64,000 bases of DNA from Kiritimatiellia bacterium (GCA_045617985.1 JAZLJP010000145.1:1075-65074), one strand, 5' to 3'. Counted from the first letter of the stretch, positions 6,706 to 53,792 are shown. Program-made: numbers and translations. Notes: generated from the letters alone by a model not told the origin.

Positions 6706-6711
6706 GTTCCC

Positions 6712-11618: not shown

Positions 11619-11622
11619 TTAA

Positions 11623-11672: not shown

Positions 11673-11678
11673 TTTGGC

Positions 11679-16417: not shown

Positions 16418-16437
16418 GGCTGGCGGATCCGTTTCGT

Positions 16438-30424: not shown

Positions 30425-30964
30425 ATGTCACAGGAATGGAACATCAAGAGCCGGGGCCATGTGTGCTCGATTTGCCAGAAGCCGCTCATCGACAAGGCGC
30501 CGGTCGTTTCGGCGCTGAAGGAACTGCCGGGCGGCTATGAGCGGCAGGACTGCCATCCGGAATGCTGGAAAACGGCGCCGCGCGACTGGGCGCCGTTCAG
30601 CCAGTGGGAAGGCGTGTATGTGGCGCCGCCGCCGCCCGACGCGCGCAAGGAGCCGCTTAAGAAGGAGACGGCGGATGAACTTCTGCGCCGCCTCATCTCG
30701 CTCGACGACCCGGCGATGAAGAACGTCGTCTACGTGCTCGCGGTGATGCTCGAGCGCTCGAAGATCCTCGTGGAGCGCGATGCGCGCGAACAGGAGGATA
30801 GCTCCATCATCCGCGTGTACGAACACCGCAAGACGGGCGAAAGCTTTGTCGTGCTCGACCCGCGCCTGCGGCTCGAGAACCTTGCCGAAGTGCAGCAGCA
30901 GGTCGTGGCGCTCCTTTCGGGCACGAAGAGCCTTGGCGAAGTTTCGGCGCAGGAAGAAGGATGA
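30425..30964 (+). CDS. Small conserved hypothetical protein with an N-terminal Cys/His cluster (CSIC...HPEC)
   Basis: Clean ORF. Its stop overlaps the kinase start (ATGA at 30961-30964). Confidence 0.7.
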   Translation: MSQEWNIKSRGHVCSICQKPLIDKAPVVSALKELPGGYERQDCHPECWKTAPRDWAPFSQWEGVYVAPPPPDARKEPLKKETADELLRRLISLDDPAMKNVVYVLAVMLERSKILVERDAREQEDSSIIRVYEHRKTGESFVVLDPRLRLENLAEVQQQVVALLSGTKSLGEVSAQEEG

Positions 30965-32355: not shown

Positions 32356-32975
32356 GCAGTACATTCCCGGAAACATCGTTCACGCTCATCGCGAAGATCA
32401 AGGACCTCGCGCGCGGGCAGGACTCCGCCGTGTGGAACCGCTTCTGGGATCTCTATGCGCCGGCGATGCGCGCGTTTGCGGTCTTCAAGGGGGGCGAGGC
32501 GAATGCAGACGACATCGTGATGACGGTCTTGGGCAAACTCGTCGACGTGCTGCGCACGGGCCAGTACGATCCCGCGAAGGGAGCGTTCCATTCCTACCTC
32601 GCGACCATGATCTACAACGAGGTGCACATGCAGCATCGGAAGGACGAGGCACGCAAGAGCGACCAGCACGTCCCGCTCGACGAGGCGCTCGTGGAAGCGA
32701 TCCCCGCGCCGCCCACGGGCGGCGAGGCCGATCGCGACTGGCAGCGGGCGATTCTTGCGGCCGCCGTGGAACACGTCCTCACGAAGACGGCGCTTTCCGA
32801 GCGCGATCGCCAGATCTATCGCTTCTACGTGCAAGAGAACCATGCGCTTGATGAAGCCGCGGCCGAGTTCAAACTGCCGCGCAACACGATCAGCCAGATC
32901 AAGACGCGAATCGAAAAGCGCATCGCCGCCATCGGCCGCGAAATGGTGCAGGCCGCCGAGCGCATCGGCCAGTAG
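32352..32975 (+). CDS. ECF-type sigma-70 family RNA polymerase sigma factor, with no adjacent anti-sigma gene
   Basis: ATGA overlap with the kinase stop (32352-32355). Region-2-like block DDIVMTVLGKLVDVL...FHSYLATMIYNEV. Region-4 HTH LSERDRQIYRFYVQENHALDEAAAEFKLPRNTISQIKTRIEKRI. Confidence 0.8.
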   Translation: MSSTFPETSFTLIAKIKDLARGQDSAVWNRFWDLYAPAMRAFAVFKGGEANADDIVMTVLGKLVDVLRTGQYDPAKGAFHSYLATMIYNEVHMQHRKDEARKSDQHVPLDEALVEAIPAPPTGGEADRDWQRAILAAAVEHVLTKTALSERDRQIYRFYVQENHALDEAAAEFKLPRNTISQIKTRIEKRIAAIGREMVQAAERIGQ

Positions 32976-33067: not shown

Positions 33068-33096
33068 TTGCGTATCGGAATCCGTTATGGTACAAT
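33068..33096 (+). promoter_or_regulatory. Near-consensus sigma-70 promoter (TTGCGT-N17-TACAAT with a TGn extension) heading the giant-exoprotein locus
   Basis: -35 at 33068-33073; TGgTACAAT at 33088-33096. This predicts a ~140-nt leader before ATG 33245. Confidence 0.65.
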
Positions 33097-33244
33097 ATGT
33101 GCGCTTTCGAGCACTAGACCTTCGTGCGTTCAGACGTGCCTAGGAACCGGCTGGACAATCAAAAGTCCGAAGGAACGGTGCAAGGAAGTCTAGCCGGATG
33201 TTTCGGTTAGTCAACAAGGTAAAACAAAACAAGGAAGAAACAAA

Positions 33245-34009
33245 ATGAAGAAGCTCATGCTTACGGCCGCTGCTGCGGTCCTCTCGATGGGTGCGTTCGC
33301 TCTCTGCGGCGATGCGGAGCCCGTGGTTGTCGTCGTTCAGAAGACGGTGAAGGTTCAGCGCCAGGTCTACAAGACCACGTTCTGTGGCAAGACCACGACG
33401 GCTCTCCCTGGCAAGTCCGTGGCGAGCGCGTGCGGCGATGTCACGGAAGGCTGCTACGCTCGCGTGCCGGCCAAGCTCAAGATCAAGGGCTGGATCGCTC
33501 TCTGCGACACGGCTTGCACGGCCCTCGTGGGCGGCACGGCCGATGCCGAGAGCTATGCGTTCTGGGCGACGAAGCCGTTCAAGGCCGACCTCACGCCGGA
33601 TGCTGACTTGACGTTCGACTTCATCAACGTCATCGGCAAGAAGCCGAACAAGGCTGAAGCCGCTGGTAAGTTCACGAGCAAGTTCGTGTTCGCGGAAGGC
33701 ACGGAGTGGGATCTCGCCGATGGTCTCGCGTTCGCGGGTCTCGGTTCCTACAAGAAGCCGATCTACAAGAAGATCACGGGCAACTTCGTGGGTCAGCCGG
33801 CCGCTTCGTGGTACATCTCCAACGCGGTCTGCGCGCAGAGCGACGTCTATGATTGCGATACGCTCCAGCTCCTCTGCGGTGAATATCCCAGCACGGTTGC
33901 GTTCGGCAAGTGGACGCTCAAGTACAGCAAGTCCGCCGCCAAGAAGCTTGGCAAGGGCCAGCTCCCGAAGGTCCCGAGCTATGCGACCTACAAGAATGCC
34001 GCTGAATAA
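33245..34009 (+). CDS. Secreted 254-aa Cys-rich protein of unknown function
   Basis: Strong RBS aaggaagaaacaaaATG; signal peptide MKKLMLTAAAAVLSMGAFA; nine Cys residues; followed by an intrinsic terminator. Confidence 0.85.
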   Translation: MKKLMLTAAAAVLSMGAFALCGDAEPVVVVVQKTVKVQRQVYKTTFCGKTTTALPGKSVASACGDVTEGCYARVPAKLKIKGWIALCDTACTALVGGTADAESYAFWATKPFKADLTPDADLTFDFINVIGKKPNKAEAAGKFTSKFVFAEGTEWDLADGLAFAGLGSYKKPIYKKITGNFVGQPAASWYISNAVCAQSDVYDCDTLQLLCGEYPSTVAFGKWTLKYSKSAAKKLGKGQLPKVPSYATYKNAAE

Positions 34010-34036
34010 GCAAGGCATAGCTTGATAAAGCACCGA

Positions 34037-34076
34037 CTGGTGGGGTGGGTTTCCACCTCACCAGTTGTTCGTTTTT
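34037..34076 (+). terminator. Rho-independent terminator after the Cys-rich protein gene
   Basis: ctggtggggt (34037-46) / 8-nt loop / acctcaccag (34055-64), followed by ttgttcgttttt. Confidence 0.75.
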
Positions 34077-34105
34077 AGGGTAGACATCGAGATACAGGTG
34101 GTCAA

Positions 34106-35290
34106 ATGAACCGGTTGGCGATCCTTGGCATTGGCGCGATGCTCGCGCTGTTTTCTGGTTGCTCTGACGCTCGAAAGCCGCAGGCGGCGGCGAAGGCGGC
34201 CGAGCCGAAGATGGCGGACTTGGCGGAGGACGACGTGATTTTGCGCGTGAACGGCGCGGAATTCAAGAAGCACGATTTCACGGTGGCTTCGGCGCTGTTC
34301 GATAAAATGTCTCGGATGCGCGGCAAGGATCCGCTCACGGGGCCGAATGCGAAGGCGGAGCGCTCGAAGCTCCTCTATCGCCCGTATGTGCTTGGCGATA
34401 TCAAAAGGCGTGCGCTCATGGGGCAGTTTGCGCGCGAAAACAAGATCGTGGCGAGCGAGAAGAACGTCAAGGCGGCGGAAGATCTGTTTTTGAAGACGGT
34501 CGATCGGAAGAAATCGACGATTGACGAGGTGGCGACGGAGATCGGCGGAGAGGAAGGCGCCTTGCTGAAGACGTATCTCCAGCAGGATGCGGTAGATTTG
34601 ACGCTCCGCGAGAAGTTCGATACGGAGCATCGTCTTGACATCACGGATGCGGATGTGATGGTCGTTTCAAATCGCATTGAGAAGAGTCGGCAGACGGCGG
34701 CGGCGTCCAATGCGCTGGAGCGGGCGACGCTTGAAAAGGCGCTTGCGGAAATCAAGGCCGGCAAGGATTTCGCGGAAGTCGCGAAGACGTATTCGATCAT
34801 GCCGGGCGAGGCGAAGGAATGGGCGGAGATCGACCAGGACGACGTCGCCGAAGAGCATGTGGCGCTCACGGAGTGGGCGAAGACGGCGCGCACGGGCGCT
34901 GTTTCGGGGATTCTCGAACTGGAGGACGGGCAGGGTATCTGCAAGGTGACGGCCTATACAAAGGAAGAGGACGACGATCCGAATGAAAAGGACCGCGAGC
35001 CGCCGGAAGAGAACTGGACGATCGTGCGCATTGTCCGCAAGTTCTGGGAGCCGTACGAGCCGATGACGCGTAAGGAAATCGTGGAGGAGCTCTTCAAGAT
35101 CAGGAGCCGCGAGGTGCAGAAGAAGATTGGAGATGCGATCATGGCGAAGGCCGTCATTGAATGGCCGAAGGGCACGAACCTCTTCGAACACGTGGAAACG
35201 AAGGCGGAGATGACGAAGAGGGCCGCCGCCGAAAAGAAGGCCGCTGCCGAGAAGGCGAAGGTCCGGAAATCAACTTCAAAAGCGAAATAA
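34106..35290 (+). CDS. SurA/PrsA-like chaperone lipoprotein with a degenerate parvulin region and a Lys/Ala-rich tail
   Basis: The signal ends in LFSGC (lipobox). SurA-N-like helical region; KAGKDFAEVAKTYS block typical of the start of parvulin domains; C-terminal AAEKKAAAEKAKVRK. Confidence 0.75.
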   Translation: MNRLAILGIGAMLALFSGCSDARKPQAAAKAAEPKMADLAEDDVILRVNGAEFKKHDFTVASALFDKMSRMRGKDPLTGPNAKAERSKLLYRPYVLGDIKRRALMGQFARENKIVASEKNVKAAEDLFLKTVDRKKSTIDEVATEIGGEEGALLKTYLQQDAVDLTLREKFDTEHRLDITDADVMVVSNRIEKSRQTAAASNALERATLEKALAEIKAGKDFAEVAKTYSIMPGEAKEWAEIDQDDVAEEHVALTEWAKTARTGAVSGILELEDGQGICKVTAYTKEEDDDPNEKDREPPEENWTIVRIVRKFWEPYEPMTRKEIVEELFKIRSREVQKKIGDAIMAKAVIEWPKGTNLFEHVETKAEMTKRAAAEKKAAAEKAKVRKSTSKAK

Positions 35291-35308
35291 GCGAAAGGGT
35301 AGTCGAAA

Positions 35309-38300
35309 ATGAAATTCAGACAGCTCATGAAGGTCTCGAAGGGCCTTGTTTTGGGGGTCGTGGCGCTTGCCGCATTTGCGGTGCCGCAGGTTGCCGGCGC
35401 GGTTGAATACAGCGATAAGGACCTTGGTTCATTCATTACGGAGGTGCGCGCGCCCTTGGGGTCGCCCGTCGTGGTGGGTGAATGGAATGGCGACTTGGAC
35501 GCCTGCCGTGCGAAGGCCGAGAAGGAAGGCATCCCGATGATTGCCATCTGGAGCTTCCAGGGGTGCGCGCACTGCCACACGCTGGAACGTGCGCTCAAGT
35601 CGGACCGGTTCAAAGAATGGGCGAAGACCTGCGGGTTCATTCTCTGCTTCACCTGTTCGTACGACCCCAAGGGGGCGCGTTCGACGGGCGCCTATTACAG
35701 CTGGTGCGGGCGCAAGGGCCTTTCGGGGTCCTTGAGCGACTATCCCTACGTGCGCTTCTATTGGTACACGAACAACGGCAAGACCGCGAAGGTGGACTAC
35801 GCCGTGGTGGGCGATACGCTCGACAAGCAGCAGGGCATTGCCTATTGGACGAATCCCGACGGTACGCGCGAGAAGAATTTCAACAAGGCCGGTCAGAACT
35901 GCATCGACTACATCATGAATTCGAGCGGCTTTGGCGCCTACGTGCCGAAACCGGCGTTCAACGGCGGCGTGTTCACGGTCACGAACACGGTGGCGACGGC
36001 GTGCTTGCAGGCGGAACCTGCGACGACGTTCGTGAATGTCGAGATGACACGTGAAACGACGGATGCGGCCACGCAGAAAGTCGTTGTGACGCCGAGCGGA
36101 AAGACCGCCAAGACGATCTCGGTGAGTTGGGCGAAGAACGAGACGAACAAGGTGGTGAAGCTCGAGAACTTCAATACGGCCTTCTATACGGCCAATACGA
36201 ACGTCAAGCTGGAGGCGAAGGACGACGAGAACGGCACGATTTCAACGACGATCGTTGCCTGCGTGCCGGCGCAGCCGAATGCGCCGTCGAACCCGTATTG
36301 GATCGGCGAGAAGACGGCGGGCGAGCTTGCGTGGGGCGATTGGACGATGGATCTCGATGCCGCGAAGGCGAAGGTGGCGACCGATCCTGAAGCCGTGATG
36401 GTGGGTTTTGTGGACGGCACGCTCTGGTGCCCCTGGTGCAAGAAGGGCGAGACCTGGCTCACGTCCGAGGCGTTCAAGGCCTGGGCGGCTGAAAAGAAGG
36501 TGATCTTCGTGCAGGTCGATTGCCCGCGGCAGAATGCCGAGCAGAACGGTCCGGCCGAGGGGCCTACGCTCCTCCGCCACACCGTGGCGACGGTGAGCGG
36601 GGCTGCGACGAGCGGCAGCGGCTATCTCTCCCGTAAGATGATCGACCCCGCCGCGGCGGAGGCCGTCTTCGCGCGCAACATCGAACTCGTCACCGCCACC
36701 TGGCGCCGGCCCGAATCGGCGGCGTGGCGCACGGGCATGGGCACGTTCATCCTCTTCGACCATGACGGCACGGCGAAGGGACGCCTCGTGTGGAATCGCG
36801 AGGCCGAAGGCGCGGAAGCGAACATGCTGCGCCTTGCGGAACTTGAAACGCTCCTCGCCGACGCGAATGAAGAGGCGAACCAGGCGTGGCAGACGACGAG
36901 CGCCGAGGTGCCGATGAGCGGCACGGTGACGGGCAACGCGATTTCGCTTTGCGACCTCGTGGACGTCTTCAAGCTTCCGGCGAGCGCGAACGGCTGCTTC
37001 GAAGAATTCACCTACACCTCCGAAAAGGCGGCGGATGTGATTCTTGAAATCGTGAGCGTGAATGGTACCGCCGAGACGGTGGTAGCGACGGCGAGCGGGT
37101 CGAAGACCGTGGCGGTGGGCGGTACGATCACGAGCGAAACGAGCTATCTGCGCGTGCGCGGCAATGCGGAGACGACGTTCAAGGGCGACCACGCGACGTC
37201 GAATCCGAACGACACGCTCACGGCCTATACGCTTGTGAGCGCGGTGGTTTTGGTGCCGCAGGAAAAGATGGGCACCTACGAGCTGCCGGCCGGAGCGACG
37301 GCGGTGACGGTGCAGATCACGCAGGGCGAGCTCTATCGCCTGGATGGCGTCGAGGGCGTTGCCGGGAAGATCGTGGAAGACGAAACCCTCGGGAAGCCCT
37401 ATTTCCGGGCGCTCGTGAGCGAGAATGTGCAGCTTCCGGTGGCGGCTGGGTCGATCGCGGTGAACTTCCAGAATTGGAAGCCCGGCACGGTGGGCTTTGC
37501 GGTTGCGCGTGCGACGGCGAAGGAAAACGCGGGAACGGTGAAGATCACGCTCAAGCGGGTGGGCGGTGCATCCGGTGAAGCGGCGCTTGCCGTGACGCTC
37601 GATGAGACGGCAACGGCGTTCCTCGATTCCGATGGCGAGAAGCGCTATGAGGATTTCGCGGCCACTACGGTGACGTGGGCGGATGGCGACGCGGCCGACA
37701 AGACGGTGGAAGTGAAGCTCCTCTACGCCGGTGCGCGTTTCGACGGCAATGGTACGATCGTCTTGAAGGCCGCCAAGAGCGGGGAGTGCGTGGCGGCGCT
37801 CGGCACGGATTCTTTTGTGCTCGATGTGACGGAAGTCGACCAGGCGGCGCCGGGTGTGATCGGGTTTGTGGAAGCGGGCGCGGCGCTCGTGAAGGAAGGC
37901 CAGGCGCTCACGTTCAATGTGAGCCGTACGGTGGCGTCCGACGGGGCGGTTTCCGCCACGGTGAAGACCACGAAGGGAACGCTTTCGAGCGGAACGGCCA
38001 GCTGGGCGAACCACAAGTTCGACACGTTGCCGATCACGCTCTCGGGCCTTCGCAAGGGTGAGACGGCCACGGTGACCCTGACGGCGCCGCAGGGCGGCGC
38101 GACGCTCGGCGCGAACAAGAAGCTCACGGTGACGGCGGTCGATGCGGCGGGTGCGGAATTCGCGAACCCGAATCAGGCGGAAACGCTCGTTCGCTACGTG
38201 GCGTTCTCGAACGTGTATGCGCTCGCCGAAGCCCCGGCGAAGAAGCCGACGTTCGCAAAGATTTCGGGCACGCTCCCGGCGGGCCTCAAGGTGACATACG

Positions 38301-39655
38301 ATGCGGCGGCGCAGGGCATGGCCGTGTGGGGCATTCCTTCGAAGGCGGGCACGTATGAAGTCGTCTACCAGGTGAAGGTGGGTTCGGCGGCGGGCCTTGC
38401 GCAGCGCATTTCGTTCACGGTTGCCGATGCGACGGTGGCGACGGAAGGCGAGCCGGCGCTGAATCCTGCCGTGGCGGCGGTGAAGAGCCGCACGTTCACG
38501 GATCTCATGGTGATCGATCCCGAGAACAAGGCGCTCCTGGGCGTCATGAAGGTCACGATCCCGGCGACGGGCAAGATGAGCGCGAAGTACACCTGCGCGA
38601 CGGGCAGCGTTTCCTTCACGTCGAAGAGCTGGACCGCGTTCGACCCGGAAACGGGCGCTCTTGCGGCGCGTGCAACGGGCAAGTACGGCTACGCGATCGA
38701 AGTGCAGGCGAATGGCGATGAGAGCGTGGAGGGCAACCTCTACCAGAACGGCGAGCTGATTGCCGCCTTCTCGTCGAACGGCACGGTGTGGAGCAAGACG
38801 AAGCCCGCGACGGCGTTCCAGGGTTACTACACGGTGATCCTTCCCACGGCTGAGGTTGAAGAGGCGACGGCAGGCGTGGCTCCGCGCGGCACGGGCTACC
38901 TCACGTTGAAGATGGATTCGGCTACGACGGCCCAGAAGGGCACCGTCACCTGGGCGGGCATGCTCCCGAACGGGACGGCGGTTTCGGGGAAGAGCGTTCT
39001 CACCGACGGCGGCGAATGGGGCTTCATGCCGTTCTTCAAGGCATCGAAGACGGATGTCTTCGCCGGTGCCTTGAAGATCCTGGCGAATGCCTGCCCGCCC
39101 GCCACGGCGACGGCCGATCAGGTGGCGCAGGCGCAGCACAAGTGCGTCTTCATGATGGACGAAGTGGTGCCCCTGTGGCAGCACATCGAGAAGACGGCGC
39201 CGCTTGCCGACTACGCGGTGCGCTTCAACCTCTATGGCGCCTTCTACCACAAGCAGGATAGCCTCCTCACGTGCTGTAAAAACGCATACGACGTCTCCAC
39301 GCTCGACTTCCTCGTGGACGGCGCCTCCGTGAACAAGGTGAACGTGAAGATGGCGTCGATGGCGCTCGTCAATACGACCACCGCCACGAATCCGCAGAGG
39401 GTCTCGATGACGCTCAAGGATACGACGGGCGTGATTACGGGATCGGTGCGCAATGCCGACGGCACGACCTGCAAGTACGCGGGCGTGGTGCTCCTCGGCT
39501 GGGGCGGCATCGACTGCGGCTGCTTCGATACGCCGGAAGAGTTCCAGCCGTTCGCGGCGGGTTCGTATTACTACACGAAGCGCGAGACGGTGGGCGGGAA
39601 GTCGCTTTCGCTCAAGCGCGGTGGTAATGTGGCCATCGACAACGCGGCCAAGTAA
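35309..39655 (+). CDS. 1448-aa exoprotein: two thioredoxin-fold (Thioredoxin_7-like) CxxC domains, Calx-beta modules, an Ig-like (He_PIG-type) module and the shared C-terminal module
   Basis: Signal peptide ...ALAAFAVPQVAGA. Trx-like blocks GIPMIAIWSFQGCAHCHTLE and AVMVGFVDGTLWCPWCKKGETWL...VIFVQVDCP. Calx-beta block GTVKITLKRVGGASGEAALAVTLDE...TVTWADGDAADKTVEVKL. Ig-like block LPAGLKVTYDAAAQGMAVWGIPSKAGTYEV. Confidence 0.85.
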   Translation: MKFRQLMKVSKGLVLGVVALAAFAVPQVAGAVEYSDKDLGSFITEVRAPLGSPVVVGEWNGDLDACRAKAEKEGIPMIAIWSFQGCAHCHTLERALKSDRFKEWAKTCGFILCFTCSYDPKGARSTGAYYSWCGRKGLSGSLSDYPYVRFYWYTNNGKTAKVDYAVVGDTLDKQQGIAYWTNPDGTREKNFNKAGQNCIDYIMNSSGFGAYVPKPAFNGGVFTVTNTVATACLQAEPATTFVNVEMTRETTDAATQKVVVTPSGKTAKTISVSWAKNETNKVVKLENFNTAFYTANTNVKLEAKDDENGTISTTIVACVPAQPNAPSNPYWIGEKTAGELAWGDWTMDLDAAKAKVATDPEAVMVGFVDGTLWCPWCKKGETWLTSEAFKAWAAEKKVIFVQVDCPRQNAEQNGPAEGPTLLRHTVATVSGAATSGSGYLSRKMIDPAAAEAVFARNIELVTATWRRPESAAWRTGMGTFILFDHDGTAKGRLVWNREAEGAEANMLRLAELETLLADANEEANQAWQTTSAEVPMSGTVTGNAISLCDLVDVFKLPASANGCFEEFTYTSEKAADVILEIVSVNGTAETVVATASGSKTVAVGGTITSETSYLRVRGNAETTFKGDHATSNPNDTLTAYTLVSAVVLVPQEKMGTYELPAGATAVTVQITQGELYRLDGVEGVAGKIVEDETLGKPYFRALVSENVQLPVAAGSIAVNFQNWKPGTVGFAVARATAKENAGTVKITLKRVGGASGEAALAVTLDETATAFLDSDGEKRYEDFAATTVTWADGDAADKTVEVKLLYAGARFDGNGTIVLKAAKSGECVAALGTDSFVLDVTEVDQAAPGVIGFVEAGAALVKEGQALTFNVSRTVASDGAVSATVKTTKGTLSSGTASWANHKFDTLPITLSGLRKGETATVTLTAPQGGATLGANKKLTVTAVDAAGAEFANPNQAETLVRYVAFSNVYALAEAPAKKPTFAKISGTLPAGLKVTYDAAAQGMAVWGIPSKAGTYEVVYQVKVGSAAGLAQRISFTVADATVATEGEPALNPAVAAVKSRTFTDLMVIDPENKALLGVMKVTIPATGKMSAKYTCATGSVSFTSKSWTAFDPETGALAARATGKYGYAIEVQANGDESVEGNLYQNGELIAAFSSNGTVWSKTKPATAFQGYYTVILPTAEVEEATAGVAPRGTGYLTLKMDSATTAQKGTVTWAGMLPNGTAVSGKSVLTDGGEWGFMPFFKASKTDVFAGALKILANACPPATATADQVAQAQHKCVFMMDEVVPLWQHIEKTAPLADYAVRFNLYGAFYHKQDSLLTCCKNAYDVSTLDFLVDGASVNKVNVKMASMALVNTTTATNPQRVSMTLKDTTGVITGSVRNADGTTCKYAGVVLLGWGGIDCGCFDTPEEFQPFAAGSYYYTKRETVGGKSLSLKRGGNVAIDNAAK

Positions 39656-39674
39656 GGAAACGAGAAAGATGATG

Positions 39675-39710
39675 AAACCGTGCAACCCGTTGAACGGGCT
39701 GCACGGTTTT
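39675..39710 (+). terminator. Rho-independent terminator or attenuator after the 1448-aa gene
   Basis: aaaccgtgcaacccg / ttgaa / cgggctgcacggttt (15-bp stem with one mismatch), running into tttt. Confidence 0.6.
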
Positions 39711-39718
39711 CACATTTC

Positions 39719-39751
39719 TTGTCACCCGCGCGCCGTGTGCGCATATATTCA
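39719..39751 (+). promoter_or_regulatory. Promoter candidate TTGTCA-N16-GCATATATTCA upstream of the first ~1375-aa paralogue
   Basis: ttgtca at 39719-39724 and gcatatattca at 39741-39751. The same TGTCA-N16-GCATAT spacing recurs at 52881, 54173 and 54832. Confidence 0.5.
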
Positions 39752-39784
39752 ATGTAAGACTTTTGTTGTTTTTGAGAAGAGGAG

Positions 39785-43918: not shown

Positions 43919-43933
43919 AGGAGAGATGGACCG

Positions 43934-46900: not shown

Positions 46901-48052
46901 AACGTCGCCTACACGAATACGCTCGCGGTGACGGTGGCGGAAGGCTCCACGACGAACGGCGTCGATTGGCTTAAATCCGGCGGCGCGGTCACGCTCGCGA
47001 TGAACGTGCCGGATGCGAATGGGAAGGGTGTTCAGCCGAACATCGCCTACGCGGGCAACATCTACCGTCAGAACGCGAAGATCCAGGACTACCTCGCGGC
47101 GGTGACGAATTTTACGGGCTACTACACGGTGGCGCTCGCAAATCCCTCTCATGTGGGCGAGGGCGTGCCGGCGGGCAACGGCTATCTCACGCTCACGATC
47201 GACAACAAGGGCAAGGTGAAGGTGGCAGGCATGCTTGCCGATGGCACCACGAAGCCCTCGCTTTCCGTTCCGGCGGCGGCACTCGTGCAGGATGCCGCTT
47301 CGGCGAATGGCTACTCGCTTGTTCTGCCGCTCTATTTCGCGAAGGCCCCCACCTGTTTCGGCGGGCTCTTGAAGTTGTCGGCTGCGTCGGCGGCGAATCT
47401 GCCGAACGGTGCGGCCTACGAGGTGGTGGCCGATGCGCGTGAGACGCTCGTGTGGAACAACGACAAGGCCGCGCTCACGTATGCGGGCGACGCGGGCTGG
47501 TCGCTCGCGCTCTCTCCGTGCGGCGGCTGGTACGATACGGTGTTCAATCTCCAAACCTACTATCTGGGTACGACGCTTTCGGTGAATACGGCCGGTATCC
47601 TGTCGTTCCCCGCCGAGGTGCTTCCCGCCGGTTTCGGATTTTCGACGGCGGCCGAGCCGAACGGGTTCGCGCTCGATCTCCAGGGCGACAAGATCGCCTA
47701 CGCGAAGAAGGTGCAGGTGAAGAATGGCGCGCTTGTCGATCTTGAGAAGAGCGAGAACATCTGCAACGTGGCGGTGAAATTCGCCCGTGCAACGGGCCTT
47801 TACTCCGGCACATGCGGCTTCTGGTGCGAGAACGAAACGGGAACGGCGCAAAAGCAGCTTTCGGGCGTGAAGTTCTTCGGCGTTCTCGTCCTCGCGCGCG
47901 ATGTGGCCTCGCCGCTTGCGGCGAGCGAGGCGGGGGCGGGCTTCATGACGCTTCCCGTAAAACTTTCCGAAACCGATGAAGCGACGGGCCGCACCATGAC
48001 GCGCGCCTGGACCTTCTCCGCGCCGTTCAACCTTCACGGCGAAGAGGATTGA
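43934..48052 (+). CDS. 1372-aa exoprotein, tandem paralogue B of 39785..43918
   Basis: Collinear with paralogue A over its whole length, for example ANCEEHA...YFFKAKLERGKAYTVWT and VNRTAKDGVVRVKFATVDGTARAGVDYVGQSGILEWPNGDNKAKTITVKI. Only a 15-nt gap from paralogue A. Confidence 0.85.
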   Translation: MKKIVSLAVGILVWGFAASAAPANCEEHADTVKMSASGAVRTVTLVPAYDPDDESYDANQGVYFFKAKLERGKAYTVWTEGVGTNDNLTVMAYAADPSDESDADGPSADFEEVEEPGLDQRLILYADDWYIDDENPEESDPKEWTYYFEVNGEVGDRLTVNFVLGVNIPQGREDNPLVLTPTTTGSTVKRSLQTNNEYYMRARLQAGRMYWFATAGGTTNNVLEISVDGEDPADETKDPPTCSVIDDPAYEEDGANAGIYVVPDETGYFTIVVNGDDPNTDEDAASGAPFSFSSRLFAAETVANHTAQDLEVDAPPAAFTAGWENTPEHFANGIYDNVIDEALFRFPVAKGERYTVETTGAATNLLLRLYDAKGNVLVENAGDGTSLNVRAGVTAAADGFYFVGVCQNLEDLINDEPAHTAARVQVRRVVAMKGTPDAWDAADDTPSGATPLAPVPSAEGIPPRESDTAGHGWHQLGRTDWADVFQIAGRKGLVYTLGVSMENPEAAFNSLQAEVFTLSGTSERAVTVVGDVNAGAAMPLSFAATANATYYVRLKVAEGEGLDFPPYKLHASASSPEGAALGILTVNTHGTTAGTFSLGSETVKYPGGSSVLASGTTTVKFGAVAGFSTPAPQTVTVAAGATPTVVDVYYSDTFDPKDDAPATATAWTLKNVETTFARTLWPTDEADNFSFAGTDGYYYDLALRDVTGDAVFSITNAELGVMAENVTSVRELVLPKTKAKYILTVKHATAEKTGGAYTLAGFFANVGAIKFAKAAVSAKENAVSVALAVNRTAKDGVVRVKFATVDGTARAGVDYVGQSGILEWPNGDNKAKTITVKILPDLVAEYDGNKTFTVKLEPLPAAERGANEYEAAFLGGDTCTVTLTEVSRAGTTVATTYAAKAPKLATVTTEKVPLSSGTFYGVIRAAEGALTNGLPALASVTFTASTAKPAALSAKVALAGKTYSFSAKGWDEENGATCTKTFSLVQKVNNVAYTNTLAVTVAEGSTTNGVDWLKSGGAVTLAMNVPDANGKGVQPNIAYAGNIYRQNAKIQDYLAAVTNFTGYYTVALANPSHVGEGVPAGNGYLTLTIDNKGKVKVAGMLADGTTKPSLSVPAAALVQDAASANGYSLVLPLYFAKAPTCFGGLLKLSAASAANLPNGAAYEVVADARETLVWNNDKAALTYAGDAGWSLALSPCGGWYDTVFNLQTYYLGTTLSVNTAGILSFPAEVLPAGFGFSTAAEPNGFALDLQGDKIAYAKKVQVKNGALVDLEKSENICNVAVKFARATGLYSGTCGFWCENETGTAQKQLSGVKFFGVLVLARDVASPLAASEAGAGFMTLPVKLSETDEATGRTMTRAWTFSAPFNLHGEED

Positions 48053-48062
48053 GGATTAAGCG

Positions 48063-48251
48063 ATGATGATGAAAGAGGCGTTCTCCTTCCGTGACGGATG
48101 GAACTGGTGGGTGCTTGCGGCAATCGTTCTCGGGGCGATCGTCTTGGGCGCGTTGAACAACCTGCGCGTCTATGAAGAGCAGCGCGTGCCGTGGTTTGGC
48201 GCGGTTGCGCCGGCGGGCAGCGCGGCGGGCGAGAAGGGAGTGCAGGAATGA
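48063..48251 (+). CDS. 62-aa single-TM protein, possibly the membrane-anchor remnant of a rhodanese-like partner of MauE proteins
   Basis: WNWWVLAAIVLGAIVLGALNNLR TM helix. ATGA overlap with the next gene at 48248-48251. Confidence 0.5.
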   Translation: MMMKEAFSFRDGWNWWVLAAIVLGAIVLGALNNLRVYEEQRVPWFGAVAPAGSAAGEKGVQE

Positions 48252-49612
48252 CGGAGAGGGCGAAGCTCGTTTTTGCGGTGGTGGATGACGTCTTCCGTCT
48301 CGTTCTCGGCGGCATCTTCATCTATGCGGGTTGGGAGAAGATTCAGGATCCGGCCTTCTTCGCGACGCAGGTGGCGGCGTATCGGATGCTGCCCGATTTC
48401 TGCGTAGGTCTCTTCGCGCTCATCCTCCCGATGGTGGAAACGCTTGCGGGGCTTGCGCTCGTCGCCACGCGTTGGCCGCGCGAGGCGGCGCTTCTCATTC
48501 TCGGCCTCCTCGGAATGTTCTTCGTGGGGCTTACGCAGGGGATTATCCGCGACCTCAAGATTTCGTGCGGCTGTTTTGGCGATGGCGGGGCTGACGAGGG
48601 AAGTCTCGGTGCGGCGCTCCGGCGCGACCTCGTTCTCCTCGTGCCGGCCGTATGGCTCTCGCTGCGGCCGAATCGGTGGCTCTTTCGGGGCGTACCGTTC
48701 CTTTTGGGTGTGCTCGTCGTGCTTGTTCTCGCCGTCTTCGGCTGGATTTTCACGGTGGGGGTGAACTCTCCGCGGGGCAAGTTGCGGGGCAAGTTCGAAC
48801 GCGCGGCCGCCAAGGATGTTCAGGCGGTGATGACGACGGCGAAGGGGGACGTTTCCCCTGAGCAATGGACGACGAATTTCCCGAGCGCCCTCGCCTCGGC
48901 GCGGGAACACCATCAGCCGCTCATCATGGTGATGGGGGAAAAGAACTGCCATTACTGCCAGCGGCTCGACAGCGTTTTGAAGGGGCCGGCGTTCAAGCGG
49001 TGGCTCAAGGGTACGGGAATCTTCCTTGCCGAGGCGCACCTCAGCGAAACGAATGCCGGCGTTGAGGTGAAACAGATGCAGCTCGACTTCATGCGCGCCA
49101 TCCCTCACACGACCAAGCTCGTCTATCCGATGATGGCCGTCTACTGGCCGCAGGCGAATTCGAATGACAACGTCGAGGCCGTTTTTACGGGGCGGCGCGG
49201 ATTGATGCCCGGGAAGCGTCACGAATCGCTCACGGGGGAACTCGTGAACGTGCTTGATCGGCTATTGAAGGACTATTTGAAGAGCCGGGGGGCGCGCCCC
49301 ACCTTCGAAGAACTGCTCGGTACCGGTACGCGCTTCGTCAAGATTCAGGCTTCGCCGGATGCGAAGGCGTGGATGGAGCCCGCGTCGGGCCTCTTGGAAC
49401 CCGGCGCGAAAGTGACGTTGCGCGTGAAGCCGAAGCGCACGGGCATGCGTTTGACGTGGTATTATCCGGATGGGAAGCCCGTCCCGCATCAGCACGCGAC
49501 GCGTCTCGAGGTGAACGACGACATGCCGGCGGGTACCTACTCGTTCAAATTTAAGGAATGGAAAGCGATTAAACCCACGGCGGCGGGTACGCTCTCCGCC
49601 GGAGGCCGGTGA
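48248..49612 (+). CDS. MauE/DoxX-family membrane domain fused to a thioredoxin-fold CxxC domain and an Ig-like C-terminal domain
   Basis: LGGIFIYAGWEKIQDP...LKISCGCFGDGG is the MauE hallmark. After an extra TM comes HHQPLIMVMGEKNCHYCQRLDSVL...GIFLAEAHL (Thioredoxin_7-like). The C-terminal beta-rich region is KVTLRVKPKRTGMRLTWYYPDG. Confidence 0.8.
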   Translation: MTERAKLVFAVVDDVFRLVLGGIFIYAGWEKIQDPAFFATQVAAYRMLPDFCVGLFALILPMVETLAGLALVATRWPREAALLILGLLGMFFVGLTQGIIRDLKISCGCFGDGGADEGSLGAALRRDLVLLVPAVWLSLRPNRWLFRGVPFLLGVLVVLVLAVFGWIFTVGVNSPRGKLRGKFERAAAKDVQAVMTTAKGDVSPEQWTTNFPSALASAREHHQPLIMVMGEKNCHYCQRLDSVLKGPAFKRWLKGTGIFLAEAHLSETNAGVEVKQMQLDFMRAIPHTTKLVYPMMAVYWPQANSNDNVEAVFTGRRGLMPGKRHESLTGELVNVLDRLLKDYLKSRGARPTFEELLGTGTRFVKIQASPDAKAWMEPASGLLEPGAKVTLRVKPKRTGMRLTWYYPDGKPVPHQHATRLEVNDDMPAGTYSFKFKEWKAIKPTAAGTLSAGGR

Positions 49613-49651
49613 AAAAGACAAGTGGTTTCAAGGGCACAAGGAGGCGCGCGC

Positions 49652-52600
49652 ATGCAGATGAAGGGATTGATTGTTGCCGTGGCGATGGGGGTCGTCGCGC
49701 TCGTTGGCCGAGGGGACGTTCTGCGCGAGCGGTTCGTATCGGCGGCGGCGTGTCCGGCGGCGCGGCTTGTCTCGGGTGCGCGCATCGTGTTGCCCACGTT
49801 CGAAGCGCGGGCGTGCGTGCTGCAGCTTGGGGCGCGGCGGGCCTCCGCAACGGGGCACGCCACGTTCTCGGCGACCGTGGAAGGCGCGGGCGCGGTGAAG
49901 AGCGCCGTCGTGGTGGCGACGGCGGAAGGTTTCACGGCATGCGTGCAGGATTTCTCAACGGGCAATGTCTTTTCGTTTGTTCGTAATCGGGAGGGGCTGC
50001 GCGTGCGGGAACTCGCCGCGCCGCGTGTGCCGCATCGGTGTGTGAAAAAGGCGTTGACGGCGCGTCTGGCGGGTGCGGCCCAGCTGAAGCGGAAGGCGGC
50101 GTATGCGACGGCGCCGGAAAGTTGGTTCACGCGGCCGAAGGCCGCGTGGCTCGCGCGCGGAGAGACGGAAACGAATGTCGTCGATATTCTCGTGGCGTTC
50201 GACGAGTCGGGCGCCCGTTGGGTGCGGAACGAATCGGCGGAAGGCGACCTTGAGGTGTTTGCCGCATCGAACGTGGAGAAGATGAATGCCGCCCTTGCGA
50301 ATACGGGGCTCGACGCCTTCTTCCGGTTCCGGCTGGTGGGCACGGTGGAAGTGGCGGTGGATGTACAGGCGGGTTCGTTCATGTCCACCTACGATGGCGA
50401 AACGATGATCGACTACGATCTCATCCTCAACCAGATGACGGAGAGTGCCGGCGCGCCCTGGAAGGCGCTTCGTGCGGCGCGCGAGGCGACGGCGGCCGAT
50501 GTCGTTTCGTTCCTCGTGGATAATGGCGCGCTCTCGAACGTGGGCATGATCGGCCTTGGCTTTGCGCTTGATCCTGACATGCTTGAAGTGCCGGACCTCT
50601 TCTGCGACTACACCTACAACGTCTGCTCGATTCGCGATGTGGCCGTGAGCCACACGATGACGCATGAAGTGGGGCATAACCTCGGCGCCGGCCATGCCGA
50701 CCGGAGGCAGGTGAATCCGCTTTACATCGATGTGGGCCCGCAGCTGTTCAATTGCTCGTCGGCCTACTACTTCACGGCCGATATCGGGTGGGGACCTCGG
50801 CGCTTCTTTACGATCATGGGCTATAATTGGGACGGCTATGACGACGACGAGGCGATCGAAGCGCCCTATTTCTCATCGCCGCGCCACACGTTCGCCTGGA
50901 CGGAGGAGCGGGGCGGCGCGCTCGTTACGAACGAGACGGGTGTCGCGGTGGGAACGGAATACCGCGACAACACCTGGACGCTCGAGCAGACGTTTGCCAT
51001 CGCGGCGAATTATCGCGTTCACAAACAGCAGCTGGCGCTCGACGTCCCTTCTGGCGGCGGCACGGTGACGGGCGGCGGCGCGTATGCCGCCGGCACGCGC
51101 GTGAAGCTCACGGCCAAACCGCTCGCGGGCTATGTGTTCGCCGGTTGGTATGGCGCGTGGGATGAAGAAACGGGCGCCTATTCCGCGCCGCTCGCAGGCG
51201 AGGCGGACTACCGTGCGACGCCGTTCACCTACGTCGTGGGCGGAGAGAACGCCGTCCTCTACGCGCGCTTCGTGACGAAAGACGAAGCGGCGGTGGCGCC
51301 GATGGCGGTGGCGTGCGTGCCGCCCGCCGAAGGGTATGTGGCGGGGCAGGCGATGGCGGCCTTGGCGCTTGCGGTCGATGCGCTTGCGCTCCCCGCGGTT
51401 GCGGTGAAGAACCTGCCGGCGGGTCTCAAGTTCGATGCAAAAACAGGTTCGATCGTGGGAACGCCCACGCAACCGGGCCTCTACGAGGTCGCGGTCACGG
51501 CAAAGAGCGCGGGCCAGGTGTTCACGAGCGCCGTACAGCTGAAGGTGCAGAATTTCGTCGATCCGCTCCTCACGAAAAGCGCGGCGCTGCCGGATGGCCT
51601 TGTCGATTCGTACGGCCCGTATGTGCCGGGCGTAGCGGTCGATTTCACTATGCCGCGCACGGAAGGCTGGGCGGCGAGCGGTTTCCCGGCCGGGCTCAAG
51701 TTCGATTCGAAAACGGGGCGCATCTTCGGTATCCCCACGAAGCCGGGCACGAACACGGTCGCGTTCAAGAAGACGGTGAAGGACGCGGCGACGGGGAAGA
51801 ACGTGCCGCACACGGCCTCGGCGACGTTTGTGGTGGCCGATTTCCCCGAGATGCCGATTGCCGTCACGTGGGAAACGCAGCCCGGCGCGCCGGCGGCGGT
51901 GGAAAATGCCGCGTCGATCAAGCTGACGGCAGGCGTGGCGCAACGCTTTACGCTCGTAATCGAGGGCCTTGACGGCACGCCCACCACGCTTGCGGCGAAG
52001 AACTTGCCGGCGGGGCTTAAGCTTGTGAAGACGCCGCTCAAGAACGAGAAGAATGCGGTGACCAACTACGCCTACACGATCGAGGGCGTACCCACGGCGG
52101 CATCGAAGGTGAAGAACGGTGCGGTGGTGCCCTCCGCCGTGCAGCTCTCGGCATCGAACAAGTACAAGTGGGCGGGGAAATTCGCCTTCGCAATCGAGGT
52201 GGTGGCACTCCCCGCGTGGGCGCAGGGCTCGTTCGAAGGTTTCGCGGCCGAGATTGCGGCGGCGGGCGCGGCGACGAACGGCGTGGGCGCGGCGAGCCTC
52301 ACCGTAACGGCGGCGGGGAAGATTTCGGGGAAGTACATGTTGTACGGTACGAATTGGACGATCACGGCAACGGGCTACACGGCCCTTGAGGATGCGGCCG
52401 AGGAGACGCAGCGCCGGTTCCGCCTCGCGGCCGTCGCGAAGAGCGGAAAGCTGACGCGCGACGTGGCGTTTGTCGTTGCGCCCGGGTGGGTGACGGACGA
52501 GAAGGATTTCCTCCTTTCGGCATCGGCGACGGGCGAAGGGGAGGGCGTGAGCCTTGCCCTGCGGCGGAATTGCTGGAAGGATAAGCTCTTTACGGCGGCG

Positions 52601-52816
52601 TTTCCGTCCACGGCCCAGGCGGTGAAGGGCCTTGCGAGCGTAAAAGTGAAAGTGGCGGCCTCGGGGAAGGCCACCTGGAGCGGCAAACTCGACGACGGCA
52701 CCAAGGTGAGCGCCTCGATGAGCCTCTTTCTGGATCCTGATGGAATTTTCCGCGCCTGGCTAATCGTGCCCGCTGGGAAGAATTTTGAGGGGTTTATAGC
52801 AAAAGAGTCGTTCTAA
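49652..52816 (+). CDS. 1054-aa reprolysin-like metzincin with an InlB-B-like repeat, He_PIG-type Ig repeats and the shared C-terminal module
   Basis: RBS aaggagg is 7 nt before ATG 49652. Signal-like MQMKGLIVAVAMGVVALVG. Zn motif TMTHEVGHNLGAGHADR (HExxHxxGxxH). GGGTVTGGGAYAAGTRVKLTAKPLAGYVFAGWYG. LPAGLKFD(A/S)KTG.I.G.PT.PG appears twice, with a third related copy, LPAGLKLVKTP. Confidence 0.85.
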   Translation: MQMKGLIVAVAMGVVALVGRGDVLRERFVSAAACPAARLVSGARIVLPTFEARACVLQLGARRASATGHATFSATVEGAGAVKSAVVVATAEGFTACVQDFSTGNVFSFVRNREGLRVRELAAPRVPHRCVKKALTARLAGAAQLKRKAAYATAPESWFTRPKAAWLARGETETNVVDILVAFDESGARWVRNESAEGDLEVFAASNVEKMNAALANTGLDAFFRFRLVGTVEVAVDVQAGSFMSTYDGETMIDYDLILNQMTESAGAPWKALRAAREATAADVVSFLVDNGALSNVGMIGLGFALDPDMLEVPDLFCDYTYNVCSIRDVAVSHTMTHEVGHNLGAGHADRRQVNPLYIDVGPQLFNCSSAYYFTADIGWGPRRFFTIMGYNWDGYDDDEAIEAPYFSSPRHTFAWTEERGGALVTNETGVAVGTEYRDNTWTLEQTFAIAANYRVHKQQLALDVPSGGGTVTGGGAYAAGTRVKLTAKPLAGYVFAGWYGAWDEETGAYSAPLAGEADYRATPFTYVVGGENAVLYARFVTKDEAAVAPMAVACVPPAEGYVAGQAMAALALAVDALALPAVAVKNLPAGLKFDAKTGSIVGTPTQPGLYEVAVTAKSAGQVFTSAVQLKVQNFVDPLLTKSAALPDGLVDSYGPYVPGVAVDFTMPRTEGWAASGFPAGLKFDSKTGRIFGIPTKPGTNTVAFKKTVKDAATGKNVPHTASATFVVADFPEMPIAVTWETQPGAPAAVENAASIKLTAGVAQRFTLVIEGLDGTPTTLAAKNLPAGLKLVKTPLKNEKNAVTNYAYTIEGVPTAASKVKNGAVVPSAVQLSASNKYKWAGKFAFAIEVVALPAWAQGSFEGFAAEIAAAGAATNGVGAASLTVTAAGKISGKYMLYGTNWTITATGYTALEDAAEETQRRFRLAAVAKSGKLTRDVAFVVAPGWVTDEKDFLLSASATGEGEGVSLALRRNCWKDKLFTAAFPSTAQAVKGLASVKVKVAASGKATWSGKLDDGTKVSASMSLFLDPDGIFRAWLIVPAGKNFEGFIAKESF

Positions 52817-52880
52817 TTTGAATTAGAGTGTGTTTCAGGGGGCTTCGCTGACGCATTGCGGCAAGGTCTTTATACTTTTT

Positions 52881-52913
52881 TTGTCATTTTTAAATCCGGC
52901 TTGCATATATTCA
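52881..52913 (+). promoter_or_regulatory. Promoter candidate TTGTCA-N16-GCATATATTCA ending 4 nt before ATG 52917 (possible leaderless mRNA)
   Basis: ttgtca at 52881-52886 and gcatatattca at 52903-52913. There is no Shine-Dalgarno sequence between the -10 region and the ATG. Confidence 0.45.
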
Positions 52914-52916
52914 TAT

Positions 52917-53792
52917 ATGATGAAAAGGAGAATTTTATTTTCAATCGGCTTCGGCGCCCTTCTCTGCGGAGTGGCGGCGCTCGTCTATTTCACCGGTCCT
53001 TCCGTGGAAGACGTTGAAAAGCCGAACAAGCCGGCGAAGGTCACGCAGGGGGGGAAGAAACCGCCGAAGGTGAATCGCCGTCCGCCAACGCGTGAGCATG
53101 AGTTGCTGGTGAAGGTCGGTAACAAGAACGAGGAAAAGGCGTTCAGGGTTGAATTGCCGAAGGATGAAGAGGCGAACCTGACGGATGCGTACAAGAAGCT
53201 CCTTCAGGAATTGCGTGATGTCATCGATCCGCTTGATCGGAAGAAACTGCTCGCCTTGGTCCATCGCATGCAGAGTTCGGAGGAGTGGCCGGACGGGATC
53301 CCTTCGATTCTCCACGAAGCGGCGATCGAAGCGCTTTCCGAGCTCGGGGCGGATGGCGCGAGCGAGCTTGCTGGCTATCTCGAATCGGGCGATGCGGATG
53401 TACGCGAGGATGCGATGGACGCGATTATCGAATCGGTAGACGACGATGCGTTGAGCGATCGCGAAAAGAGCGAGATGATCAAGAGCTTCGCGCGCTGCAT
53501 CAATGACGCGGACGCGCTTGAATCGCTTTTCGATATCATCGATATGGATATGCGCAATTCCGTGCAGATCGATACGATGAAGGTCGTCCTGGTTACTGGA
53601 ACGAGCGCCGCAAAGCAGAAGATTCTTGAAGAGACGCTGCCGGAAGTGATCGATAGCGAAGATCCCATCAAGCTTGAAGATGCGAATCGGCTAATGGATG
53701 AATGGTTCGCGGAAAATCCTGACGGCGAAGACGATGAAACAGACTACGCCGGTACGCCGAAGGATGACGATGACGAAGACGATGATGATTAA
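52917..53792 (+). CDS. Membrane-anchored helical-repeat (HEAT-like) protein with a poly-acidic C-terminus
   Basis: MMKRRILFSIGFGALLCGVAALVYF anchor; helical repeats (AAIEALSELGADGASELAGYLESGDADVREDAMDAI); tail DDDDEDDDD. ATG 52917 is chosen inside ORF-track 52830..53792. Confidence 0.7.
   Translation: MMKRRILFSIGFGALLCGVAALVYFTGPSVEDVEKPNKPAKVTQGGKKPPKVNRRPPTREHELLVKVGNKNEEKAFRVELPKDEEANLTDAYKKLLQELRDVIDPLDRKKLLALVHRMQSSEEWPDGIPSILHEAAIEALSELGADGASELAGYLESGDADVREDAMDAIIESVDDDALSDREKSEMIKSFARCINDADALESLFDIIDMDMRNSVQIDTMKVVLVTGTSAAKQKILEETLPEVIDSEDPIKLEDANRLMDEWFAENPDGEDDETDYAGTPKDDDDEDDDD

Follow-up and report, generated by a model that had tools for sequence, protein, structure and literature searches.

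A nine-gene row in a Kiritimatiellia bacterium, read as two separable units: a secreted-protein cassette and a MauE-thioredoxin module

Does a row of nine genes that combines giant secreted proteins, thioredoxin-fold domains and a MauE membrane protein encode one dedicated apparatus, or do separable units lie side by side in it? The row spans positions 33068 to 53792 of a 64,000-nucleotide (nt) stretch from a Kiritimatiellia bacterium (GCA_045617985.1 JAZLJP010000145.1:1075-65074; the whole stretch is called the window here). An earlier note, made from the DNA alone, had taken the nine genes for a single extracytoplasmic maturation apparatus, with the mau cluster as its nearest precedent. Open reading frame (ORF) calls in the window returned all nine genes (g1 to g9; Table 1) on the plus strand, exactly where that note had put them; the spacers from g1 to g6 are 96, 18, 129, 15, and 10 nt, g6 and g7 overlap by ATGA, and 39 and about 100 nt follow, so that the close packing, the overlap, and the single gap of about 130 nt all hold. 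Here, we read the row as a lineage-specific joining of two separable units (rough probability, 0.55), namely, a cassette for a secreted protein set with folding catalysts of its own and a module in which MauE would oxidize a tethered thioredoxin domain by way of quinones.

Custom profiles were run over a comparison set of 73 related loci (18 centered on g7 and 55 centered on g3; individual loci are given by handle), all of which come from metagenome-assembled genomes (MAGs) or metagenome contigs, many of them short, and the counts are not phylogenetically independent. The order g1-g2-g3(-g4) recurs in L086, L090, L092, and L093, and 51 further loci with it came from a scan of metagenome contigs with the g3 family. 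Of 45 loci, 40 have g2 as the gene immediately before g3; g1 is upstream of g3 in 32 of 35, and in 20 of 28 the next gene after g3 is of the g4 type. Wherever the sequence reaches far enough, even where g1 identity is down to 31 to 34%, g1 is followed by a rotamase-like gene of about 400 amino acids (aa) and then by a thioredoxin-bearing gene of about 1500 aa, with a g4-type gene usually next. A kinase-sigma gene pair, present upstream in the window too, precedes the cassette in 4 of 15 g3-centered loci; g9 is present in 8 loci (its homologues include those in L001, L004, L006, L007, L092, and L097), and gene content downstream of g4 varies by lineage. The conserved unit across Kiritimatiellia is (kinase-sigma)-g1-g2-g3-g4(-g9); in the lineage of the window, g4 has been duplicated, and the MauE module and a metzincin gene are placed before g9.

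Neither MauE nor g6 was found in any of the 55 g3-centered loci, 12 of which span at least 8.5 kb after g3. From the other side, g2 was present in 0 and g1 in 1 of the 18 g7-centered loci (the L001 and L006 stretches begin inside g3). The order g3-g4-g5-g6-g7-g8-g9 was kept only in these two closest loci, L001 and L006 (51 to 67% identity), which also have the g4/g5 duplication in common with the window; the row is thus syntenic in its closest relatives, and elsewhere the MauE module has other neighbors. That module comes directly after the kinase-sigma pair in L009, between a He_PIG protein array and the kinase-sigma pair in L008, and after two kinases and a sigma gene in L004. Units A (g1-g2-g3-g4, with g5 a duplicate of g4) and B (g6-g7) are therefore neighbors here and not one obligate system.

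The strongest rival keeps the nine genes together as a single dedicated maturation apparatus, in which the MauE-thioredoxin protein specifically oxidizes g1 and the giants, as MauE and MauD do for methylamine dehydrogenase. The gene order of L001 and L006 speaks for it, as do the proteins with the C-terminal module of the giants that lie within 10 kb of MauE in 6 of the 18 g7-centered loci (L001, L002, L004, L006, L012, and L017, in differing arrangements), L012, which unites g1-like, g3-like, and g8-like genes with a split MauE module, and the paralogy of the g3 and g7 thioredoxin domains. We nonetheless think it unlikely, given the 55 g3-centered loci that lack MauE and g6, the near absence of g1 and g2 around g7, the placement of the MauE module beside unrelated genes elsewhere, the hairpin and 129-nt gap between g3 and g4, and the report that MauE is a generalist (bioRxiv 10.64898/2026.03.05.709764). 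The hairpin (16 bp) may end a transcription unit and fits a unit boundary at that point. The tight linkage of g1, g2, and g3 across Kiritimatiellia fits a reading of g1 as a Cys-rich client that has folding catalysts dedicated to it.

The identity of the MauE module rests on conserved sequence features. Residues 14 to 138 of g7 match MauE at 86.9 bits, far above the cut-off of 27. Among 19 family members, S106-C107-G108-C109-F110, which follows the third hydrophobic segment, is invariant, and G111 is kept in at least 90%; also invariant are K31 (first transmembrane helix), E64 (second transmembrane helix), C234, and C237. Hydropathy gives four hydrophobic segments and then a fifth, and with this fifth transmembrane helix the thioredoxin domain would lie in the periplasm, where the CGC loop is as well. 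The CHYC region is very probably a thioredoxin fold: Thioredoxin_7 falls just short of its threshold (25.4 bits; cut-off, 27), a precomputed PF13899 match exists for 7 of 21 family members, and the profile of this domain family finds DsbH of Chlamydia as its nearest match in the PDB (2ju5; E = 8.8e-5), followed by AGR2/3. The earlier description of g7 as a MauE/DoxX domain (CGCFG) joined to a thioredoxin-fold domain (CHYC), with an Ig-like tail, is probably right. The CxxC regions, invariant in both the g3 and g7 families, are of thioredoxin-fold type in g3 and very probably so in g7. The first thioredoxin domain of g3 and that of g7 match each other's profiles (E = 1e-11 and 4e-12); the g3 domains are paralogues of the g7 domain, and small proteins with a g3-type thioredoxin domain adjoin MauE in L002, L007, and L012.

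MauE has just been proposed as the second commonest disulfide-forming protein of bacteria (Gonzalez et al., March 2026 preprint, bioRxiv 10.64898/2026.03.05.709764). MauE proteins of two phyla restored motility and PhoA activity to Escherichia coli lacking dsbB; activity needed a periplasmic CXC between transmembrane helices 3 and 4, usually CGC and then Phe-Gly, and a conserved Lys (helix 1) and Glu (helix 2) line a predicted quinone site (bioRxiv 10.64898/2026.03.05.709764). According to the same preprint, a thioredoxin-superfamily domain is attached to MauE in about 8% of entries, and MauA occurs in only about 10% of MauE-bearing species. With this DsbB-like MauE, g7 shares the MauE profile, the four-helix core, the CGC-F-G loop between helices 3 and 4, and the Lys/Glu pair, K31 and E64 being equated with the residues of the preprint by position alone. 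It is very probably thioredoxin-fused, like some of the published proteins, but adds an Ig-like tail; it has an extra conserved single-pass partner of about 55 aa (g6), which sister lineages use as an anchor of the thioredoxin-Ig protein; and it comes from Kiritimatiellia, a group unmentioned in the text of the preprint (bioRxiv 10.64898/2026.03.05.709764). A literature search on disulfide pathways in Kiritimatiellota found nothing relevant.

In bacterial VKOR-thioredoxin fusions, which the preprint cites as well, a four-helix quinone-linked module is followed by a fifth transmembrane helix and a periplasmic thioredoxin domain. The g7 protein shares the logic and layout of these fusions and of the DsbB/DsbA pair; it differs from VKOR and DsbB in its membrane protein family and in an active site of CXC, not CXXC, and from DsbA in that its thioredoxin domain is of the Thioredoxin_7/DsbH/AGR type, without a DsbA-like helical insert. 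Because the MauE features of the preprint and the VKOR-like layout are both present in g7, we read g6-g7 as a DsbB/DsbA-like disulfide generator and donor. MauE would form a disulfide at its periplasmic CGC loop, with electrons flowing to the quinone pool as they do from DsbB; the disulfide would pass to the thioredoxin domain, tethered in the periplasm by the fifth helix; and this domain would in turn oxidize exported client proteins, with g6 serving as a small membrane subunit or docking helix. The g3 thioredoxin domains, as paralogues of the g7 domain, are plausible further acceptors of MauE disulfides, and g1, g3, and other Cys-bearing exoproteins are plausible clients, though the most likely role of the module is to serve the envelope as a whole and not the cassette alone.

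The mau cluster, the precedent chosen earlier, resembles this arrangement in its MauE membrane protein, its thioredoxin-like CxxC protein (MauD), and its disulfide-rich secreted client; there the thioredoxin protein is separate, whereas in g7 it is fused to MauE. Pfam searches that covered the nine proteins and 30 ORFs flanking them in the window found no match to MauA, MauB, or MauG, and a mau cluster was rejected on that ground. As a precedent it is outdated, with MauE now reported as a general DsbB-like disulfide generator that is often thioredoxin-fused (bioRxiv 10.64898/2026.03.05.709764).

The small g6 protein accompanies g7 in 16 of the 18 g7-centered loci. Its helix and motif are fused to the N terminus of a separate thioredoxin-Ig protein, with MauE as a gene of its own, in L013, L015, L016, L018, and L019, and g6, thioredoxin-Ig, and MauE are three separate genes in L010 and L012; because of this observed fission/fusion series, we treat the three parts as one functional module. 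A survey of 66 MauE loci in other phyla turned up neither g6 nor a thioredoxin-Ig protein of the g7 type. A search of 5.8 billion proteins gave only about 20 close relatives of g7; the closest reaches 54% identity, and one carries the name Kiritimatiellae. Kiritimatiellia account for most relatives of g7. In a scan of one genome per species, full-length relatives came only from MAGs labeled Kiritimatiellia/Kiritimatiellae, Lentisphaerae, or Verrucomicrobia and from unnamed ones, largely of the rumen RUG series, and other phyla matched the MauE domain of g7 alone.

Two further neighborhoods of the module were recorded. In L003 (GCA_045640385.1), positions 1 to 8817 hold a full type III secretion system gene set (SctJ, SctL, ATPase, YscO, SctR, SctS, SctT, and SctU) directly upstream of the g6/MauE-thioredoxin pair. 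In L004, positions 11158 to 16687, after MauE, hold genes for a polyprenyl synthase, a UbiE-type methyltransferase, a UbiA-type prenyltransferase, electron-transfer flavoprotein (ETF), and ETF-quinone oxidoreductase; this menaquinone/ETF-quinone oxidoreductase setting fits a quinone-linked role of MauE.

Table 1. Features of the nine-gene row and its upstream flank (positions counted from the first nucleotide of the window)
Feature	Position	Strand	Evidence and remarks
179-aa ORF	30425..30964	+	Stop overlaps kinase start by 4 nt (ATGA); no Pfam match
Ser/Thr protein kinase	30961..32355	+	Pkinase, E = 1.7e-37
207-aa sigma-70-family factor, size of an extracytoplasmic function (ECF) sigma factor	32352..32975	+	Sigma70_r4, E = 6.6e-5; ATG overlaps kinase stop (ATGA); GGAGG Shine-Dalgarno
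Promoter-like site of g1 (TTGCGT, 17 nt, TGgTACAAT)	33068..33100	+	Read from sequence
g1, 254-aa secreted protein, AxA signal-peptidase site	33245..34009	+	No Pfam or NCBIfam match
Intrinsic-terminator-like hairpin 3' of g1	34034..34067	+	15-bp stem, 9 GC pairs, T-rich tail
g2, divergent PrsA/SurA-like peptidyl-prolyl isomerase (PPIase)	34106..35290	+	Rotamase, 24.2 bits (cut-off, 21.7)
g3, 1448-aa secreted protein	35309..39655	+	Thioredoxin_7 in two stretches, E = 3e-12, 46.9 bits (cut-off, 27)
Hairpin in the 129-nt g3-g4 gap	39675..39709	.	16 bp, GC-rich
g4, 1377-aa secreted protein, PPC + Calx-beta + C-terminal module	39785..43918	+	Calx-beta, E = 3e-16, 59.8 bits; module, E = 6e-210
g5, tandem g4 paralogue	43934..48052	+	54% identity to g4; Calx-beta, 59.2 bits
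g6, 62-aa single-pass membrane protein, motif LGxLNNxRVxEExRVxWFG	48063..48251	+	Conserved partner of the MauE/thioredoxin module
g7, MauE + fifth transmembrane helix + thioredoxin domain (CHYC) + Ig-like tail	48248..49612	+	MauE, E = 1.9e-24; DoxX
g8, secreted metzincin-like protease, HEVGHNLGAGH	49652..52816 (ORF from 49622)	+	Flg_new_2 and He_PIG repeats; partial C-terminal module
g9, membrane-anchored acidic protein	52917..53792 (ORF open from 52830)	+	Likely start MMKRR; transmembrane helix at residues 35-53 of the long ORF

What, then, does the cassette contain? The g1 protein has 32 relatives (up to 82% identity), in which five Cys are invariant. Of its nine Cys, counted in the earlier note, eight are conserved in the close family and C47 is not; an even set of this kind is what structural disulfides would give, and g1 probably has four. 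A lipoprotein was considered and rejected, since the spacing from AxA to Cys varies among relatives, so that the signal is of the signal-peptidase I type. The AlphaFold2 model of g1 (predicted local distance difference test score [pLDDT], 82) is all-beta with a barrel-like fold; compared with PDB structures it gave weak barrel-type matches alone (OmpA, PsbO, and MppR; TM-scores of <0.3), from which no function can be transferred, and the family profile found nothing among PDB sequences. The promoter of g1, described as near-consensus, was overstated: it has 8 of 12 consensus matches plus a TGn extended -10 and falls under the threshold of the consensus scan, which does not list it. A terminator of its own, also claimed for g1, was found as a hairpin with a 15-bp stem.

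The g2 protein agrees with its description as a SurA/PrsA-like lipoprotein. Its Rotamase match exceeds the cut-off, its SurA_N_3 match is below its own, orthologues match Rotamase, Rotamase_2, and SurA_N_3, and the lipobox LFSGC, read from the sequence, makes it probably a lipoprotein. A canonical SurA-like PPIase gene is encoded separately at 28441-29343 (plus strand; Rotamase, E = 2.7e-26; SurA_N_3), 5 kb upstream of g2; g2 would therefore be an extra, cassette-specific PPIase.

The two thioredoxin-fold domains reported at the start of g3 (CAHC at 86-89 and CPWC at 374-377) are confirmed by Thioredoxin_7 scores above the cut-off and by the invariance of both CxxC sites. Across five g3 orthologues (34 to 50% identity), the invariant Cys are C86/C89, C374/C377, C1096, and CGC at 1403-1405. 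Ig/Calx-like repeats and a C-terminal all-beta module follow; a Calx-beta assignment is only indirect, by way of a BLAST alignment with that part of g5 in which Calx-beta lies (E of about 1e-7), and NCBIfam gives a weak DsbH match. The CGC of g3 sits in a Gly-rich loop (GWGGIDCGCF) of the C-terminal module (38333-39652), an insertion that is missing in g4 and g5, and is of the CXC motif type, like the active site of MauE. The g4 and g5 genes are, as described, tandem paralogues (54% identity) with Calx-beta (E of about 1e-16) and PPC-like regions, the PPC matches being weak.

On our reading, unit A would be an envelope or secreted protein set that brings its own folding catalysts. The g1 protein would be a small, abundant member that needs four disulfides, and g2, as a dedicated PrsA/SurA-like PPIase, and g3, as a thioredoxin-bearing giant, would both aid folding or assembly.

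The g3, g4, and g5 proteins all end in about 470 residues that belong to a single family. A C-terminal module common to g3, g4, g5, and g8 had been proposed; it is complete in the first three, and g8 has the first ~210 of ~473 positions alone (hhalign probability, 97%). The model of the module (pLDDT, 86.5) is all-beta and resembles tandem soluble beta-barrels; its matches to PDB structures were weak barrel matches (BFA1, DUF3598, and TbpB; TM-scores of <0.3), no Pfam or NCBIfam model reached threshold, and its family profile found nothing among PDB sequences. An exhaustive profile search returned 1,561 cluster representatives at an E value of ≤0.001 (262 at ≤1e-30), a family size visible by this search alone, since a word-indexed search with the g4 C terminus gave 10 matches; ten clusters with the module, when looked up, carried no names. 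In nearly all of the 150 best, the match reaches the extreme C terminus, and full-length proteins have about 700 to 3400 aa, with varying passenger regions ahead of the module (LRR_5, He_PIG, PPC, and Calx-beta). In this position, and in its varied passengers, the module is like the C-terminal domain (CTD) of type IX secretion system (T9SS) cargo or the beta-domain of autotransporters; at ~470 aa, it is far larger than the T9SS CTD, and its model looks like soluble tandem barrels rather than a membrane barrel. Among sorting-domain models, the sole match was Por_Secre_tail, sub-threshold (E = 0.057) and in the PPC region, not at the C terminus. T9SS cargo was rejected, with no CTD match, and a sorting role for the module is speculation.

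The g8 protein shares the HExxHxxGxxH motif with Mep72/reprolysin-like metzincins, and its matches are weak and below the curated cut-offs (Reprolysin_5, 26.2 bits against 27; NCBIfam Mep72, 38 bits against 645); it differs from them in its Flg_new_2 and He_PIG repeats and its truncated C-terminal module. Of the earlier account of a metzincin with Ig repeats, the motif and the repeats stand, and the family assignment falls just short of the Reprolysin_5 cut-off. Genes of the g8 type lie near g3- or g4-type genes in L012 and in the g3-centered loci L115 and L143. For g9, Pfam gave no match, and the label "HEAT-like" finds no support there.

An ordinary, variable island of adhesins and proteases, in which the g3 thioredoxins are non-catalytic binding modules and the MauE adjacency is incidental, would account for the Calx-beta, PPC, He_PIG, and Flg_new_2 regions, all common adhesin-type modules, for a C-terminal module carried on many passengers (including LRR_5, He_PIG, and Calx-beta), and for the lineage-variable content downstream of g4. 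It sits poorly with a g1-g2-g3-g4 order that is kept down to about 31% g1 identity and with both CxxC sites and the CGC of g3 being invariant at 34 to 50% identity, which is unexpected of non-catalytic relics, and we regard it as a rather poor explanation. Least probable is a reductive or isomerase pathway (DsbD/DsbC/DsbH-like) in which the module and the g3 thioredoxins keep Cys reduced or reshuffle disulfides, to which the best solved thioredoxin match (DsbH 2ju5 of Chlamydia, another lineage of the Planctomycetes-Verrucomicrobia-Chlamydiae [PVC] group), the weak DsbH match in g3, an earlier MauE-reductase report (cited in bioRxiv 10.64898/2026.03.05.709764), and source samples largely from gut and rumen lend something, against complementation of a dsbB deletion by MauE through its CXC site (bioRxiv 10.64898/2026.03.05.709764), a g7 without a DsbD-like cytoplasmic electron-input domain, and eight conserved Cys in g1, an even set, as for structural disulfides.

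Several points weigh against the two-unit reading itself. For this organism, the evidence is computational throughout: the sequences show gene content, invariant motifs, conserved gene order, and the splitting and joining of domains, and from these we deduce the direction of electron flow, the clients, where in the cell the products lie, and the purpose of the cassette. Giants with the C-terminal module lie near MauE in 6 of 18 g7-centered loci, more often than a random gene would, and some functional coupling of the MauE module to them is possible; its general use is something that we infer. The nearest solved relative of the g7 thioredoxin domain, DsbH, is named a disulfide reductase by NCBIfam, and the preprint cites earlier work proposing MauE as a possible reductase (bioRxiv 10.64898/2026.03.05.709764). 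Finally, fold searches for both g1 and the C-terminal module yielded nothing beyond weak barrel matches with TM-scores of <0.3.

The flanks bear out most of what had been noticed there. Ser/Thr kinase and ECF-sigma genes do adjoin the row (Pkinase and Sigma70_r4 matches upstream), type II secretion system genes (F, G, and pseudopilin) were found downstream, along with a GH123-like gene and a 2-hydroxyacid dehydrogenase gene after g9, and no Pfam or NCBIfam model names the system. The comparison of loci lends no support to the suggested link between the row and the type II secretion genes. The translationally coupled kinase-sigma pair (30425-32975) adjoins the g1 cassette or the MauE module according to lineage (L004, L008, L009, L092, L112, L116, and L128). 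Homologues of the kinase are upstream of g1 in L112, L116, and L128 and adjoin the MauE module in L004, L008, and L009, the sigma gene travels with the kinase in related loci, and a 189-aa gene adjoins the pair in L092. The pair may regulate both the g1 cassette and the MauE module.

Elsewhere in the window, a direct repeat of about 165 nt (54146-54308 and 54804-54967, plus strand; 94% identity) lies within the 1.3-kb gap 3' of g9. Each copy ends in a GC-rich hairpin followed by a T run, and its final ~106 nt fold much more stably than shuffled versions do (z = -4.9 and -5.6); between the copies, at 54476-54556, are three tandem 27-nt repeats (GGGACAGTCCCCACGNACTCC). Across the window, Rfam gave no match at or above a gathering score; the long repeats could be small-RNA genes that were duplicated, or a duplication of the att type. 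A stretch of lower GC content (6773-11618; 49 to 58% versus about 64%) holds three ORFs, of 259 aa (a truncated N-terminal piece of MmeI), 1075 aa (weak Reprolysin_5), and 281 aa (no match), and is possibly acquired DNA. A 1227-aa ORF (308-3991, plus strand) is an unusual fusion of GDSL lipase, FAD_oxidored, two Golvesin_C domains, and a TSP3 repeat, and a 1378-aa ORF (11679-15815, minus strand) with acyltransferase, polyketide synthase (PKS) dehydratase, and 4'-phosphopantetheinyl transferase domains is PKS-like or like a polyunsaturated fatty acid synthase.

MauE-thioredoxin fusions are already known as a class. New are the g6 partner and the fission/fusion series, the Ig tail, the conserved cassette, the family of the C-terminal module, and the double-thioredoxin giant with its CGC. 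Should the cautious reading hold, annotation would gain three new families, and g7 could be labeled a DsbB/DsbA-like fusion and g2 a dedicated PPIase. A bolder view, which we hold only tentatively and think improbable as it stands, is that of an undescribed, Kiritimatiellia-specific envelope or surface machine, in which the kinase-sigma-g1-g2-g3-g4(-g9) cassette would have oxidative folding built in by way of g3, as a scaffold with two thioredoxin domains and a CGC, and would use the C-terminal double-barrel module as a new sorting or anchoring domain and the abundant, disulfide-rich barrel g1 as a core or receptor on which the module-bearing giants come together, and MauE, g6, and thioredoxin-Ig would be a three-part variant of the MauE pathway. 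For oxidative folding, the natural series of g6 anchor, thioredoxin-Ig, and MauE points to a third, small membrane subunit, and concrete candidate clients of the MauE pathway can now be named. For PVC envelopes, the finding adds a conserved cassette that is wholly unannotated, and giant exoproteins with a C-terminal domain of a large family that had not been described; both would be worth more if a function is found, and they come from a lineage of gut and rumen in which the cell surface is hardly characterized.

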